This document shows, piece after piece, positions 21,821 to 25,550 of a stretch of 44,678 nt of DNA. The notes under the pieces are model-generated. The model made no database searches. It was not told the DNA's origin and saw only the letters and a program-made list of their open reading frames with translations. The translations under genes and the position numbers were made by a program. Numbering within the stretch: the first letter of the stretch is position 1; every line of letters begins with the position of its first letter. Origin of the DNA: an uncultured bacterium (GTDB lineage: Bacteria; Muiribacteriota; Ozemobacteria; Ozemobacterales; Ozemobacteraceae); the NCBI GenBank assembly GCA_964474705.1, contig CAYYUI010000040.1, forward strand, positions 1 through 44,678, in the 5' to 3' direction.

Positions 21821-22918
21821 TCAGACGCCGGCGTCCCATTTAATGCCATCGACATGATCGATGCCGAGCCCAGGGGCTTCGGTCACCTTGAGCCATGGTC
21901 CGTCGATCTCGACCCCGCCGTGTACCGGGTCGGAAGCGCAGAGAGCCGGGCTGTCAAGGTCGCACCTGGTAATGATGCTGCGGGCACAGGCAAGATGGGC
22001 GGCAGCAGTGATACTGATTTTGCTTTCCATCATGCAGCCGATGAAGCACTCGACCCGGTGCATTTCGGCAAGGGCGCAGATACGCAGTGCTGATCTGAGC
22101 CCGCCGGTTTTCATCAATTTGATGTTCAGGTAATCGGCGGCACGCATGCTGATGATTTTTTCGGCATCGAGCGGTGAAAAAACCGCTTCGTCGGCGAGCA
22201 CCGGGGTGGTGATATTTTCCTTGACCCACTTGAGACCTTCGATGTCGTGCGCATCGACTGGTTGCTCGACGAGTTCTATTCCAGGAATTTCCCATGCGAT
22301 TTCATTCATTATTTTGATGGCTTCGCGGGGTTTCCAGCCCTGATTGGCATCGAGGCGCAGTACGATGTCTGGAGAGGTCGCATCTTTGACCGCCTTAATG
22401 CGTTGAATATCGAGTTCCGGGTTGAGCCCGACCTTGAGCTTGAGTATTCTGAAGCCGCGTTCGACGGCGATGCGGCTGTCTTTTGCCATTTCTTCGGGGC
22501 TGTTGACACTGATGGTCAGGTCGGTTTCGACCTTGTTCCGGTAGCTGCCAAGGAGGCGGTAGACCGGAATATTGAATTTTTTGCCGAACAGGTCGAAGAT
22601 TGCCATTTCGACGGCGGCTTTGGCGCTGGTGTTTTTGACCAGGGCGTTGTCGAGGGTGTTGAGAGTATCTTCGAGATTGGCGATTTCTTTGCCTTTGAGC
22701 TTTGGCAGAATGAATTCATTGATGGCACCGCGAATGCTGCCGAGTGATTCGCCAGTGATCGGGCCGGTCGGGTGTGCTTCGCCGAAGCCGCTGACACCGG
22801 CATCAGTATCGACAGCTACCACCATCGAAGTGATGTGGTCGATAGTGCGCAATGAGGTTTTAAAAGGGGTGCGCAGCGGAATCGAAATCAAACCGGTTCT
22901 GATATTGGTTATATGCAT
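21821..22918 (-). CDS. enolase-superfamily dipeptide epimerase (L-Ala-D/L-Glu epimerase, YkfB-like)
   Basis: Mandelate racemase/muconate lactonizing enzyme fold motifs (KLKVG, LRLDANQGW, metal-ligand Asp/Glu spacing); GGAGAA RBS before the ATG at 22918; ORF-track N-terminal extension judged spurious. Confidence 0.8.
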   Translation of the reverse strand: MHITNIRTGLISIPLRTPFKTSLRTIDHITSMVVAVDTDAGVSGFGEAHPTGPITGESLGSIRGAINEFILPKLKGKEIANLEDTLNTLDNALVKNTSAKAAVEMAIFDLFGKKFNIPVYRLLGSYRNKVETDLTISVNSPEEMAKDSRIAVERGFRILKLKVGLNPELDIQRIKAVKDATSPDIVLRLDANQGWKPREAIKIMNEIAWEIPGIELVEQPVDAHDIEGLKWVKENITTPVLADEAVFSPLDAEKIISMRAADYLNIKLMKTGGLRSALRICALAEMHRVECFIGCMMESKISITAAAHLACARSIITRCDLDSPALCASDPVHGGVEIDGPWLKVTEAPGLGIDHVDGIKWDAGV

Positions 22919-22935
22919 TGTTTTTCTCCGTGCAG

Positions 22936-24375
22936 TTATTTTATCTGAAATTCGCGGGCCGCGTAGATGCCTTCGAGGTATTTTTTGCCGTCTGAAAGGA
23001 AAGTTGCCAGCAGGGGTGTTACGAACACGCATCTGGCGGTCGAGCTTTTGAGTTTTCCATCAGCGTCAGGAACTCTGAAGCCGGCAAAATCGTGAATGAT
23101 GTAATAATCATTGTTCCGGCTGCCGAGATAAAGCATGGCGTGACCGGCCATGTACACCGGGGTGCCGGACGGCAGCCGGTCGAAAACTGCCTGTCGTTCT
23201 GCGAGCGTCATTTCCGGGGTCAGAGTGTGAGTTATGCCGATCGCCTGTTTGCCCTGTTCCCCGGCATTGCGGGGCAGAAGAATGCCCATGCTGCGGTAGT
23301 TGTCCATGATGAAGGCGCTGCAGTCACGGGTGTTGAACATGCCGCCCCAGCCGTAGCGTTGCCCGAGAAATTTGAAGGCCTGGGTGATGATGTTGTGGCG
23401 GGTCATCGGCAGATAGCCGACGCGCACATCTTCTGATCTGGCGATCAGACCGGTTCTGAATTCAAGCTGCCCATCGGGGCCACGGGCCGGCAGTTTGACG
23501 ACGTAATTGCCCGCCGGGTGCTGCCCGTCGATATCCATCGGGATCTCATCACGCGGACTCAGCGGAACTCTGGCGCCCATGTCGAGCTGCAGCTCAGATA
23601 TTTCGGGCCGTTTTGGATTGTAACCGGTCAGAACGCCTTTGCCGGTGACGACAAGAAAGTCGCCGCGGTCGAGGTATTCGAACAAGGGTTGCCGGTCAGA
23701 AAACGCGACGGCTTCAGCAGGCAGCCAGGCCAGGTAATTGTAGGACTGGGCGAACAGCCATTTCCCATCGGCGCTCTGGTGAAGAATGGCAAGTGGTTCG
23801 ACCGGGTAGAGAGCCGTTTCGATGAACATGTCGCTCTCAAAATCGGCTGGTTCTGCAAAAACGCGGTCGGCAGTGGGAAAAGCGCGCATCTCGGTTCTTC
23901 TGACAGTGATGCCGAATTTAACCCGGGTAAGGTTGTCGATATTGTCGAGATTCAGCTGTTTCTGGAGACTGCTGTAAAAATCATCGCCGACTTCTTTGCT
24001 ATCGAGGTAGCGTTTGCTTTTTGGCCGGGCACTGACTCTGGTGATCATCTGCCGTAATTTTTCGCCGCTCACGGCCCCGGGGTAGACGCGCAGGTTTTTG
24101 AGTACTTCACAATCGCGGAAACTGCGGCGATTATAGCGCTCGATCTGTTCGGGAGTCATGATCAGTTCATGCCGGTCGGCGATGTCTTTGAGCCAGAAAG
24201 ATGCGTAGAGCATTTCTTCGCTGACTCCCGGAATATTCAATTCGAACTGCTGATAATGCTGTTCCTGAACGCCTGTTTTGCAGGTTTCGGCCTGGACACC
24301 GGCTGCAACGAAGGTTGTCAGGACTGCGCAGATGGCGATTCCAGCCTTCTGTCGCCAATTGTTATAATCGATCAT
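22936..24375 (-). CDS. gamma-D-glutamyl-L-diamino acid endopeptidase: two SH3b domains plus an NlpC/P60 domain (YkfC-like), secreted
   Basis: Signal peptide; NlpC/P60 catalytic Cys in RDCSAF and His in GHAMLYLG; SH3b-like N-terminal repeats. Confidence 0.85.
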   Translation of the reverse strand: MIDYNNWRQKAGIAICAVLTTFVAAGVQAETCKTGVQEQHYQQFELNIPGVSEEMLYASFWLKDIADRHELIMTPEQIERYNRRSFRDCEVLKNLRVYPGAVSGEKLRQMITRVSARPKSKRYLDSKEVGDDFYSSLQKQLNLDNIDNLTRVKFGITVRRTEMRAFPTADRVFAEPADFESDMFIETALYPVEPLAILHQSADGKWLFAQSYNYLAWLPAEAVAFSDRQPLFEYLDRGDFLVVTGKGVLTGYNPKRPEISELQLDMGARVPLSPRDEIPMDIDGQHPAGNYVVKLPARGPDGQLEFRTGLIARSEDVRVGYLPMTRHNIITQAFKFLGQRYGWGGMFNTRDCSAFIMDNYRSMGILLPRNAGEQGKQAIGITHTLTPEMTLAERQAVFDRLPSGTPVYMAGHAMLYLGSRNNDYYIIHDFAGFRVPDADGKLKSSTARCVFVTPLLATFLSDGKKYLEGIYAAREFQIK

Positions 24376-24392
24376 ACATTTTTTCCTTATTT

Positions 24393-25550
24393 TCAGATCA
24401 TCGACATGATTTTGCCGACCATCAGGCCGCCACCGGTGCCGATTATGTAGCCAAGCATCGCCATCAGAATTCCGATCGGCACGAGCACTTCACTGTAGGC
24501 TGCTGCCAGAATCGGAGCTGAAGCGACGCCACCAATGTTGGCTAAACTGGCGACCCCGCAGGTGAACAGGTCGAGTCGGCAGAGTTTTGCTATCAGGGTC
24601 AGCAGAACCGCATGAATGACCAGAATCAAAAAACCGCAGAAGATATAGAAAGGTGCCTGCGACAGTTCGGTAAAATTGGCGCGGGAGCCGATCAATGCAA
24701 CGATCATGTAGAGCATCAGGCTGGAAAGGGGCGATATGCCGGATACTTTGCCGAGCGGCGTCAATGCAGCGATGACACCGGCCATAGTCGCGATAAGCAC
24801 CACCCAGGTATAAGTCGAAACGATCGAAGAAGTCGGCAGCATCGGGGCAATATACTGGGCAAGGGCCGCAACGCCGAAACTGGAGCCAACCAGCAGTATC
24901 AGATCATGGAAAGTCGTCGGCAGCGGTTGATCGTTCTTTTCGCTCATCAGGCTCGCGCCAACCGCATCAATCTGGCTGGTGTCGGCACCGGTCCAGTTGT
25001 TGAAATGTTTTGCATACGGAACTGCCATGAGCAGAATCATGACCCAGACTGCGTAATTGACTGAGTCCATCATCAGGGTATAGCCCATCTGGGAATCGCT
25101 GACGCCAAGTGCCAGCTGAATCGCGGCCATGTTGCCGGTGCCGCCCATCCATGAGCCGCACAGGGCTGCGAAAGTCTTCCAGGTGTGAGGTTCAAAGTGA
25201 TTTTTAAAAAGTGCGTAGGTGATGATAAAACCGGTTGCGATTGTGAAGGAAGCTGCAAAAAAACCGAGCAGCATGCGGGGCCCGAGTTTGAAGATCTTCT
25301 TGAGGTCGCAGTGCAGCAGCATCAGAAAGATCATCACCGGCAACAGATTGTTTTTCAGCTGGTTGTAGTAAAAATTGATTTCATCGGTCTGTTTCCAGAA
25401 ACCAAGTGTTGATAGTGCCATCACTGTAAAATAAAGTACGACAATGCCGGGCACGTAGTCGAAAAAGGTTCTAAATCGCTTGTCGAGCTGTACAATCACC
25501 GCGGCAATAAACAACAGCGCTGCAAAAAATGCAAATCCGCTTTCAATCAT
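24393..25550 (-). CDS. DUF819-family polytopic membrane protein (putative transporter)
   Basis: About ten TM segments with internal duplication typical of DUF819/YjcL-like proteins; GGGAGA RBS before the ATG at 25550. Confidence 0.75.
   Translation of the reverse strand: MIESGFAFFAALLFIAAVIVQLDKRFRTFFDYVPGIVVLYFTVMALSTLGFWKQTDEINFYYNQLKNNLLPVMIFLMLLHCDLKKIFKLGPRMLLGFFAASFTIATGFIITYALFKNHFEPHTWKTFAALCGSWMGGTGNMAAIQLALGVSDSQMGYTLMMDSVNYAVWVMILLMAVPYAKHFNNWTGADTSQIDAVGASLMSEKNDQPLPTTFHDLILLVGSSFGVAALAQYIAPMLPTSSIVSTYTWVVLIATMAGVIAALTPLGKVSGISPLSSLMLYMIVALIGSRANFTELSQAPFYIFCGFLILVIHAVLLTLIAKLCRLDLFTCGVASLANIGGVASAPILAAAYSEVLVPIGILMAMLGYIIGTGGGLMVGKIMSMI

Follow-up and report, generated by a model that had tools for sequence, protein, structure and literature searches.

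The enzymes of peptidoglycan stem-peptide catabolism are already known, and the locus described here, encoded on the minus strand of a 44,678-nt stretch of DNA (the window), raises the question of whether a DUF819 protein lying next to two such enzymes provides the membrane step where the endopeptidase is exported. We lean towards the view that the three genes form an operon for salvaging the peptide portion of peptidoglycan, in which DUF819 imports L-Ala-D-Glu.

Organization of the locus and its surroundings

As listed in Table 1, the genes for DUF819, an endopeptidase and an epimerase follow one another in the same direction. The ORF listing and the Pfam matches agreed with the tight spacing that a sequence-only reading of this DNA had described, and the three genes are presumably co-transcribed. 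The junctions read TGA-AAATAAGGAAAAAATGT-ATG ahead of the endopeptidase and TAA-CTGCACGGAGAAAAACA-ATG ahead of the epimerase, each with a Shine-Dalgarno-like motif, and the DUF819 gene has its own ribosome-binding site, GGGAGA, with the ATG 8 nt further on. A longer DUF819 ORF opens at position 25622, yet all homologues use the MIESGF-type Met at 25550; since the -10 hexamer of the promoter-like site overlaps the ATG at 25622, the start at 25550 is favoured. The epimerase start was taken as the Met at 22918, the first ATG of its ORF being at 23032.

Table 1. Features of the DUF819 locus and its upstream region (positions in the window).
Feature	Position	Strand	Basis or remark
L-Ala-D/L-Glu epimerase (YkfB/AEE-like, enolase superfamily), cytoplasmic, 365 aa	21821..22918	-	Pfam, YkfB match
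Endopeptidase/epimerase junction, 17 nt, GGAG ribosome-binding site	22919..22935	-	sequence read directly
Gamma-D-Glu-diamino-acid endopeptidase (predicted exported), 479 aa	22936..24375	-	Pfam, alignment
DUF819/endopeptidase junction, 17 nt, AAGGA ribosome-binding site	24376..24392	-	sequence read directly
DUF819 (PF05684) polytopic membrane protein, 385 aa	24393..25550	-	Pfam
Promoter-like site TTTGCA-17 nt-TATAAT, upstream of DUF819	25621..25649	-	10/12 consensus positions; prediction only
Repeat copy B, ~300 nt, dispersed, highly structured	about 25664..25960	-	sequence comparison, RNA fold
Intrinsic-terminator-like hairpin closing the upstream transcription unit	25994..26022	-	12 pairs, 9 G-C, then TTTTTTTT
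SLT-domain lytic transglycosylase, exported	26589..27749	-	Pfam SLT, E 3.8e-10

The operon had been described as driven from a promoter abutting a conserved element. A promoter-like site was indeed found about 14 nt from the end of repeat copy B; the element, however, proved to be a dispersed repeat, and the promoter is predicted only, because such sites are not commoner in the region than in shuffles (8 versus 5.2 +/- 2.6, i.e. without enrichment). Copy B is 85-88% identical to a second copy at 2293-2594 on the plus strand, with RNA-fold z-scores of -5.4 and -9.7, and the core of the repeat is present on 58 metagenome contigs, frequently at contig ends. An Rfam search gave zero matches at gathering level, and terminator-like noise only in E-value mode. 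As the repeat is multi-copy and was not found upstream of DUF819 in any of the related loci, a role as operon-specific regulator was ruled out; copy B adjoins the conserved operon and lies outside it.

The lytic transglycosylase reported just upstream is likewise real, and its SH3_3 domain is weak (23.7 bits, under the 27-bit Pfam cut-off). One more ORF and the strong terminator separate its gene from the operon, and the adjacency is not conserved: tblastn gave 0 matches among the 84 related loci compared, by which a conserved role of this neighbour was ruled out.

The endopeptidase and the epimerase

The endopeptidase contains SH3_6 (E 2e-14) and NLPC_P60 (E 5e-10) domains, and its architecture runs from a predicted signal peptide and an N-terminal domain through SH3b1 and a putative SH3b2 to NlpC/P60. 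The N-terminus, MIDYNNWRQKAGIAICAVLTTFVAAGVQA/ET, resembles a Sec signal peptide, so that the secreted SH3b-SH3b-NlpC/P60 protein described earlier stands in these respects, except that the second SH3b domain, not called by Pfam, was deduced from an alignment of residues 154-436 with DvLysin (PDB ID: 3m1u). A further N-terminal region of approximately 120 aa, absent from that description, was also observed.

The former assignment as YkfC-like had to be revised. The best solved relative was DvLysin (E 2e-23 with the single sequence and 4e-31 with a profile), against only 6.5e-5 and 4e-8, respectively, for BcYkfC (PDB ID: 3h41). C352, H412 and H428, which form the Cys-His-His triad, were invariant in the 23 aligned proteins, and the RDCS and GH motifs align with the catalytic residues of 3m1u. 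The motifs of DvLysin orthologues, RDCSA, AGHAM, RYGWGG and LPRNAG, are all present; the SH3b1 motif GEGYPFD is replaced by ADFESDMF, FxPW is missing from the aligned region, and position 211 is occupied by Tyr, whereas GEGFPFD and FxPW are found in the enzymes next to DUF819 in Campylobacterota and Synergistaceae. The acidic residue that follows Arg in the YkfC subfamily (amine-binding Asp256 in BcYkfC) is replaced by the nearly invariant N370 in the motif PRNA, compared with PRDS in BcYkfC and PRNS in DvLysin. The alignment places Y214, invariant in 17 proteins, at DvLysin Ala211, described as the counterpart of the YkfC Tyr (PMC4600125). Judged from its sequence, the endopeptidase is thus nearer to DvLysin than to YkfC, with the YkfC-type gating Tyr apparently kept.

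The location of this enzyme bears on whether cleavage precedes uptake. DUF819 could instead import the intact murein tripeptide or tetrapeptide, with both cleavage and epimerization following transport, which is broadly how the locus had been read before. The linkage to both enzymes fits this equally well, and E. coli and B. subtilis do bring stem peptides in whole and cleave them later (PMC2954226). Hydrophobic, signal-peptide-like or lipoprotein-like N-terminal segments were nevertheless found in the endopeptidase and its 16 closest DUF819-linked relatives, some DUF819-linked endopeptidases having a Cys after the segment as in lipoproteins, and these export-like N-termini argue that cleavage comes first. 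Together with the partner counts given below and the small carboxylates carried by CitS-like transporters, they make intact-peptide import quite unlikely in our estimation.

The earlier identification of the third gene product as a YkfB-like L-Ala-D/L-Glu epimerase was well supported. It consists of MR_MLE_N and MR_MLE_C domains, its best PDB match was B. subtilis YkfB (PDB ID: 1jpm; E 1.5e-96, 46% identical over the full length), and no signal-peptide-like segment was detected at its N-terminus. The window enzyme keeps R24, K160, K162, D191, E219, D244, K268, D321 and D323 (YkfB numbering), and across 47 epimerases linked to DUF819, Arg24 and the YkfB residues of catalysis, metal binding and the DxD motif varied only in one substitution, at K162. 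We take the KxK motif and Lys268 to be the acid/base residues, Asp-Glu-Asp the metal ligands and DxD a further motif, with Arg24 presumably contacting the Glu side chain. The best NCBIfam match was to the Thermotoga-type AEE (244 bits, under the 500-bit cut-off), and PRK15129 scored 104 against a cut-off of 343.

Fold and gene linkage of DUF819

The description of DUF819 as a polytopic membrane protein was confirmed by a full-length match to PF05684 (E 1.4e-101; 340.7 bits versus the 27-bit cut-off; profile positions 2-378 of 379) and by a CitS-like model. When the AlphaFold model (pLDDT 87, pTM 0.84) was compared with the PDB by Foldseek, the best 17 matches were all CitS Na+/citrate symporters (probability 1.00, TM 0.49-0.70). 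Four residues, G136, G137, N140 and G340, are invariant, with G341 nearly so; in the model, these conserved residues fall on or next to breaks that separate short helices. The predicted fold is the CPA/AT re-entrant (CitS-like) one, in which a re-entrant hairpin belongs to each of two inverted repeats; the hairpins were read from the secondary-structure string and the conserved glycines only. A published classification assigns the fold 10H-2RH to DUF819, in agreement with the citrate-symporter match, and places the GltS glutamate symporter family in the same fold type (PMC8396727). A profile of 12 DUF819 proteins retrieved no PDB chain at E <= 1, and the structural alignments gave identities of 14-19%; DUF819 lies outside the 2-hydroxycarboxylate transporter sequence family, its similarity to CitS being at the level of fold only. 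Clustered at 50% identity, the family falls into about 1,500 sequence clusters, and an exact-sequence look-up of the window protein returned no record.

The gene-neighbourhood survey that the sequence-only reading had called for was carried out on 80 species-level genomes with a DUF819 orthologue, using a genome scan pattern built from 12 DUF819 sequences and counting linkage from the DUF819 loci. A YkfB-like epimerase was found within 5 kb of DUF819 in 53 of the 80 loci, and in 38 of the 46 flanked by 5 kb or more on either side, where chance would give well under 1% (for a gene present once in a genome several Mb in size); four of these 46 lacked all three partners. The epimerase was downstream and on the same strand as DUF819 in 49 cases (median gap 727 nt), and this strand-conserved linkage passes the test that the sequence-only reading had set and lends support to placing DUF819 at the membrane in the YkfC/YkfB route for murein peptides. 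The constant partner is the epimerase rather than the endopeptidase (53 versus 28 loci), and many loci pair DUF819 with the epimerase and have no endopeptidase at all, both of which speak against import of the intact peptide. Further frequent neighbours were NlpC/P60 endopeptidases, exported Amidase_2 proteins with signal-peptide-like N-termini, MurQ, NagA, M19/M20 dipeptidases and LysA.

The loci came from Riflebacteria, Wallbacteria, Clostridia, Synergistaceae, Spirochaetia, Campylobacterota, Alpha-, Gamma- and Deltaproteobacteria and Bdellovibrionales, and around the DUF819/epimerase core both flanking genes and gene order vary by lineage. The orders DUF819-epimerase, DUF819-endopeptidase-epimerase, DUF819-DUF3870-epimerase and epimerase-DUF819 were all seen (a sequence search of the PDB with DUF3870 gave no matches), and in Proteobacteria the genes are embedded among those for MurQ, NagA, a NagK-like kinase and an M19 dipeptidase. 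The linkage persists in DUF819 members merely 31-40% identical to the window protein: at 40% identity, Amidase_2-DUF819 is followed by the epimerase approximately 2.4 kb downstream, beyond inserted toxin-antitoxin genes; at about 37%, the full trio is accompanied by LysA and a MurR-like regulator; and at 31% the DUF819 gene overlaps the epimerase gene. Its retention in at least 12 named lineages, with differing flanks and rearranged order, is unlike neutral synteny. We therefore consider it very improbable that the adjacency is a meaningless product of inherited synteny or a mobile cassette and that DUF819 has an unrelated task such as ion homeostasis, even though the fold is also related to that of Na+/H+ antiporters and certain DUF819 clades have no peptidoglycan link.

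The structural relatives of DUF819 transport citrate or aspartate/alanine, and, with GltS in the same fold type, they are compatible with another cargo of the pathway, such as diaminopimelate, DAP-D-Ala or D-/L-glutamate, or with an exporter. The cluster that includes LysA, a diaminopimelate consumer, and the distant members adjoining amidohydrolases that release acidic amino acids point the same way. Because the linkage tracks the dipeptide epimerase and not DAP- or Glu-metabolising genes, and because the pairs of DUF819 and epimerase only, some of them overlapping, best fit a transporter supplying the epimerase substrate, we regard such a role as unlikely. The cargo may nevertheless differ across the family, since some distant clades lack peptidoglycan neighbours and others have different hydrolases as partners (M20/M24, AstE-AspA, and M15 in Neisseria). 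B. thetaiotaomicron BT_1312, numbered beside a YkfB-like epimerase, was ruled out as a DUF819 member, being reported as a serine protease, and DUF819 is accordingly not a universal epimerase partner.

Gene content, spacing, catalytic residues, predicted localization, transporter fold and gene linkage are the elements shown for the salvage route that we favour. In this route, stem peptides would be freed by lytic transglycosylases and amidases, and the exported NlpC/P60 enzyme would cut the gamma-D-Glu-diaminopimelate bond outside the cytoplasm to yield L-Ala-D-Glu. DUF819 would act as a secondary transporter of the CitS-like elevator type, with two re-entrant hairpins, and take the dipeptide through the inner membrane; the YkfB-like epimerase would convert it to L-Ala-L-Glu in the cytoplasm, and general dipeptidases would then hydrolyse the product. 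From genomic context we infer the function of DUF819, as to what it carries, in which direction and with which coupling ion.

Our literature searches found no paper linking DUF819 to peptidoglycan. That DUF819 represents a previously unrecognized group of elevator-type importers for murein-derived L-Ala-D-Glu is a tentative proposal, which we hold to be possible but short of probable; more broadly, its substrates may be small acidic dipeptides or acyl-amino acids taken up for a dedicated cytoplasmic enzyme. If true, the proposal would give the family a function, fill in the membrane step in every case where stem peptides are cut outside the cytoplasm, complete a recycling route present in many phyla, and identify how environmental and host-associated bacteria take up or scavenge NOD-ligand-related cell-wall fragments. 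The partnership might also account for the retention in land plants of both DUF819 proteins and an AEE gained by horizontal transfer.

Comparison with known systems

The YkfB-YkfC pair of B. subtilis and B. cereus (ykfABCD) carries out the same two reactions, an SH3b-NlpC/P60 cysteine peptidase cleaving gamma-D-Glu-DAP and an enolase-superfamily enzyme then epimerizing L-Ala-D/L-Glu, and its two genes are adjacent as in the window (Schmidt 2001; Xu 2010, PMC2954226). In Bacillus, an ABC system of the Dpp/Opp type serves as the transport partner, and the YkfC of B. subtilis is a cytoplasmic enzyme (PMC2954226); in the window, a DUF819 secondary transporter takes the membrane position, and the peptidase, which lacks the YkfC Asp, is predicted to be exported.

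DvLysin (Desulfovibrio vulgaris DVU_0896) shares the motifs YGWG, RDCS, GH and PRN(S/A) with the window endopeptidase, and both have an extra N-terminal region. DvLysin, with Ala211, degrades intact peptidoglycan, and its A211Y mutant lost the activity on peptidoglycan and most of that on muropeptides while keeping that on free tetrapeptide (PMC4600125). The window enzyme, in contrast to DvLysin, has an invariant Tyr at this position, like the mutant, and is without GEGYPFD and RxFxPW. Its substrates may be free stem peptide or muropeptide.

The elevator-type symporter fold with two inverted repeats is common to the DUF819 model and to CitS/2-hydroxycarboxylate transporters and GltS, from which DUF819 differs in having no detectable sequence-level similarity to them. 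The MppA-Opp/MpaA/YcjG/PepD route of E. coli passes through the same intermediates, L-Ala-D-Glu and L-Ala-L-Glu, and uses a homologous epimerase, but there the tripeptide enters via an ABC system and is cleaved in the cytoplasm by an unrelated metallopeptidase (PMC2954226). In one published Bacteroides model, the epimerase acts first, and import via a putative oligopeptide permease follows.

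Genomic association of DUF819 with a dipeptide epimerase

The sequence-only reading had proposed the DUF819 protein as the membrane step of the YkfC/YkfB murein-peptide recycling route, with a gene-neighbourhood survey as the check. One genome per species (GTDB) was scanned, and the best 80 DUF819 loci (52-82% identity) were taken; these included Riflebacteria, Wallbacteria, Clostridia, Synergistaceae, Spirochaetia, Campylobacterota, Alpha-, Gamma- and Deltaproteobacteria, and Bdellovibrionales. The expected linkage with ykfB was borne out, as a YkfB-like epimerase gene was detected by tblastn no more than 5 kb from DUF819 in 53 of the 80 loci, and in 38 of the 46 with 5 kb or more to either side. 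An epimerase, an endopeptidase or the small protein DUF3870 was present in 42 of these 46. The epimerase gene was located 3' of DUF819 on the same strand in 49 loci, with a median gap of 727 nt. Furthermore, unsupervised clustering of four genes on each side of DUF819 gave the epimerase as the largest neighbour family (48 loci), followed by the endopeptidase (25) and DUF3870 (13). Gene order was variable among the lineages, and the flanks were unrelated. Neighbours in Alteromonadales and Alphaproteobacteria comprised MurQ, NagA, a BadF/NagK-like kinase, an SSF symporter, a beta-lactamase-fold/DUF3471 protein and an M19 dipeptidase, and an M20 dipeptidase was frequent in Clostridia. In the Riflebacteria relatives, the epimerase was followed by an Amidase_2 protein with a signal-peptide-like N-terminus, and the Amidase_2 of Sulfurimonas likewise had a hydrophobic N-terminus.

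Two further families recurred in these neighbourhoods. DUF3870 (about 108 aa, without a signal peptide) was repeatedly encoded in the interval from DUF819 to the epimerase, chiefly in Clostridia (positions 9189-9518 of retrieved locus L003 and 14 other loci, e.g. L010, L013, L021, L025, L047, L068 and L074). Since it sometimes co-occurs with the endopeptidase, it was regarded as an additional component rather than a replacement; no solved relative of DUF3870 was found. The beta-lactamase-fold/DUF3471 protein recurred in proteobacterial DUF819 clusters near the SSF symporter, MurQ, NagA and the NagK-like kinase (L037, L041, L042, L049, L062, L064, L071, L073, L077, L082 and L092), with that of L092 additionally matching Peptidase_M15. 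Its possible role in these recycling clusters is that of an uncharacterised carboxypeptidase for stem peptides.

The DUF819 family amounted to 1,543 clusters at E <= 0.001, from which seven distant members were sampled. The Sulfurimonas-type protein (40% identity to that of the window) was encoded in the order Amidase_2-DUF819, inserted toxin-antitoxin genes and epimerase, and P0289 from a metagenomic clade (about 37%) was part of the full trio, next to which were LysA, a MurR-like regulator and a beta-lactamase/DUF3471/M15 fusion. The gene for P0215 (31%) was overlapped by that of an epimerase. The Oscillibacter-type protein (about 34%) adjoined M20 and M24 peptidases, and P0160 (33%) an AstE/AspA-type amidohydrolase and a PLP enzyme; P0205 (about 31%) and P0227 (about 32%) had no related neighbours. 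In Neisseria meningitidis, a published map pairs DUF819 with an M15 peptidase (PMC12671195). Taken together, DUF819 looks like a transporter family whose recurrent partner is a cytoplasmic enzyme with a small peptide or an acyl-amino acid as its substrate, and whose largest branch pairs with the dipeptide epimerase. The occurrence of distant members (L088, L090 and N. meningitidis) with other hydrolases suggests that the cargos are related yet different across the family.

Operon layout and the upstream repeat

Features of the operon region and related elements in the window
Feature	Position	Strand	Evidence or remark
DUF819	24393-25550	-	Pfam, E 1.4e-101
Endopeptidase, SH3_6 + NLPC_P60	22936-24375	-	Pfam
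Epimerase, MR_MLE_N + MR_MLE_C	21821-22918	-	Pfam
Promoter-like TTTGCA-17-TATAAT	25649..25621	-	
Terminator hairpin, strong	26022..25994	-	ends upstream unit
SLT gene	26589-27749		
154-aa protein	26036-26500	-	exported-looking, no Pfam match
110-aa protein	21192-21524	-	weak HTH_3 match
831-aa protein	18600-21095	+	MVP_shoulder E 1.5e-29, Vault_3 E 5e-7
Repeat copy B	~25664-25960	-	
Second repeat copy	2293-2594	+	
ABC exporter	2813-4633		
Inverted repeat pair	30278-30334, 43647-43703		57 nt, 91% complementary, 13.3 kb apart

Both the ORF listing and the sequence itself confirmed three co-directional genes with junctions of 17 nt, each junction containing a Shine-Dalgarno-like motif (AAGGA and GGAG). 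The longest ORFs start farther upstream (25622 and 23032); homologues start at the Met codons originally assigned. Promoter-like and terminator-like matches within the genes were not commoner than in shuffled sequence. Given the spacing, co-transcription may reasonably be supposed. The nearest DUF819 homologues (82-96% identity) belonged to Candidatus Riflebacteria/Rifleibacterium metagenome-assembled genomes, which assigns the window to a member of this group. The SLT gene noted upstream proved real, in a separate, terminated unit, and was not detected near DUF819 in any of the 84 related loci compared; the 154-aa protein is encoded in the same unit. The 110-aa protein lies directly downstream of the epimerase, a position occupied in the Riflebacteria relatives by the exported Amidase_2, and the 831-aa protein, encoded directly downstream of the operon region, is a bacterial homologue of vault proteins, with matches to domains of the eukaryotic Major Vault Protein.

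The operon promoter had been described as abutting copy B of a conserved element. The predicted -35 hexamer is indeed about 14 nt away, but the element is a dispersed repeat, present in two copies in the window (85-88% identical). It folds as a long hairpin far stabler than shuffled sequences (z -5.4 and -9.7), and an Rfam search gave no match. A 23-nt core was found on 58 metagenome contigs from sludge or digesters (L097-L154); many of these came from a single sample, and the core was often near a contig end. Full-length copies of about 300 nt were 72-94% identical. The repeat was absent upstream of DUF819 in the relatives, and copy B as an operon-specific regulator was rejected; the repeat is MITE-like or RNA-like, and happens to be located near the predicted -35 hexamer. 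Short inverted sequences (GGCAAACG...CGTTTGCC) form its ends, and both window copies immediately precede promoter-like sites, which belong to unrelated genes, the ABC exporter and the DUF819 operon. The window also contains a second inverted repeat pair.

Properties of the epimerase and the endopeptidase

The closest solved relative of the epimerase was the characterised YkfB of B. subtilis (PDB 1jpm; E 1.5e-96, 46% identity over the full length). It keeps the YkfB positions Arg24, Lys160/Lys162, Asp191/Glu219/Asp244, Lys268 and Asp321/Asp323, which in YkfB comprise the acid/base lysines, the metal ligands, the ammonium-binding DxD motif and the Arg that contacts the side chain of Glu. Except for one K162 substitution, these residues were also kept in 47 DUF819-adjacent epimerases elsewhere. 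The scores fell short of the NCBIfam equivalog cut-offs, and the basis of the predicted YkfB-like function, as originally assigned, is the similarity to YkfB together with these conserved residues. No signal peptide was found at the epimerase N-terminus.

The N-terminus of the endopeptidase, in contrast, showed Sec signal peptide features. Its closest solved relative was not YkfC but DvLysin (Desulfovibrio vulgaris DVU_0896, PDB 3m1u), for which the single sequence gave E 2e-23 and a profile of 17 DUF819-linked relatives 4e-31, as compared with 6.5e-5 and 4e-8 for BcYkfC (PDB 3h41). Recycling enzymes of the YkfC type are restricted to stem peptides whose L-Ala is free, a specificity attributed to an SH3b1 Tyr and an Asp after the conserved Arg (Xu et al.). 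DvLysin, having Ala211 and Asn at these positions, degrades intact peptidoglycan, and its A211Y mutant loses peptidoglycan activity and most MurNAc-peptide activity while keeping about 80% of tetrapeptide activity (PMC4600125). The window endopeptidase has Asn in its PRNA motif, as in DvLysin, whereas its invariant Tyr214 aligns with DvLysin Ala211. By alignment it is a hybrid of the YkfC-type Tyr and the DvLysin-type Asn, and since the Asp is not kept it should not be classed in the YkfC subfamily. Considering Tyr214 and the behaviour of A211Y, it is predicted to be stem-peptide-specific on a DvLysin-like scaffold. In Campylobacterota and a single genome of the Synergistaceae, the endopeptidases adjoining DUF819 form a second, true DvLysin-type group with GEGFPFD and FxPW motifs. 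The second-best endopeptidase match was PDB 6sqx, a 499-aa "Peptide-binding protein" covering the N-terminal region, SH3b1 and the NlpC/P60 core; it may be a non-catalytic relative, as its aligned segment apparently lacks the GH catalytic histidine motif.

DUF819 as a candidate dipeptide importer

A profile search for solved DUF819 relatives by sequence found none. The top structural matches of an AlphaFold model built from 12 sequences (pLDDT 87, pTM 0.84) were all CitS Na+/citrate symporters (TM up to 0.70), followed by weaker ones to Na+/H+ antiporters and the aspartate:alanine exchanger AspT. G136, G137, N140, G340 and G341 were among the most conserved residues, located at or beside short-helix breaks in the model, and the glycines resemble the GGxG hairpin motifs of CitS and GltS. 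The CitS-like model agrees with the classification of DUF819 in the CPA/AT clan, with 10 helices and two re-entrant hairpins (PMC8396727). On account of the model, this classification and the conserved glycines, it is very likely that DUF819 functions in the secondary transport of a small solute, which probably bears a carboxylate.

The endopeptidases and amidases have signal-peptide-like or lipoprotein-like N-termini and the epimerase does not, which argues that L-Ala-D-Glu would be produced outside by the exported enzymes and used inside by the epimerase, with DUF819 as its putative importer. We infer the transport direction, the coupling ion and the cargo, and for the last we favour L-Ala-D-Glu over the tripeptide because of this difference in N-termini, because the partner that stays constant is the epimerase, with many loci holding nothing but DUF819 and the epimerase, and because small-carboxylate symporters share the fold. 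The neighbourhood linkage speaks for the uptake role first proposed, with the dipeptide as the favoured cargo. This reasoning would also stand were the endopeptidase to act on muropeptides; an exported amidase would still release the same dipeptide.

The chemistry of the pathway is already known and the operon genes would receive routine annotation; the new point is the assignment of the membrane step to DUF819. Within the literature searched, no paper linking DUF819 to this pathway was found, and neighbourhood databases may already show the association. The most relevant pathway proposal, for Bacteroides, invokes a different permease and places the epimerase before import. Land plants acquired an L-Ala-D/L-Glu epimerase horizontally and also have DUF819 proteins (PMC3605383, PMC6121227), and by analogy with the bacterial partnership the two might work together in plants.
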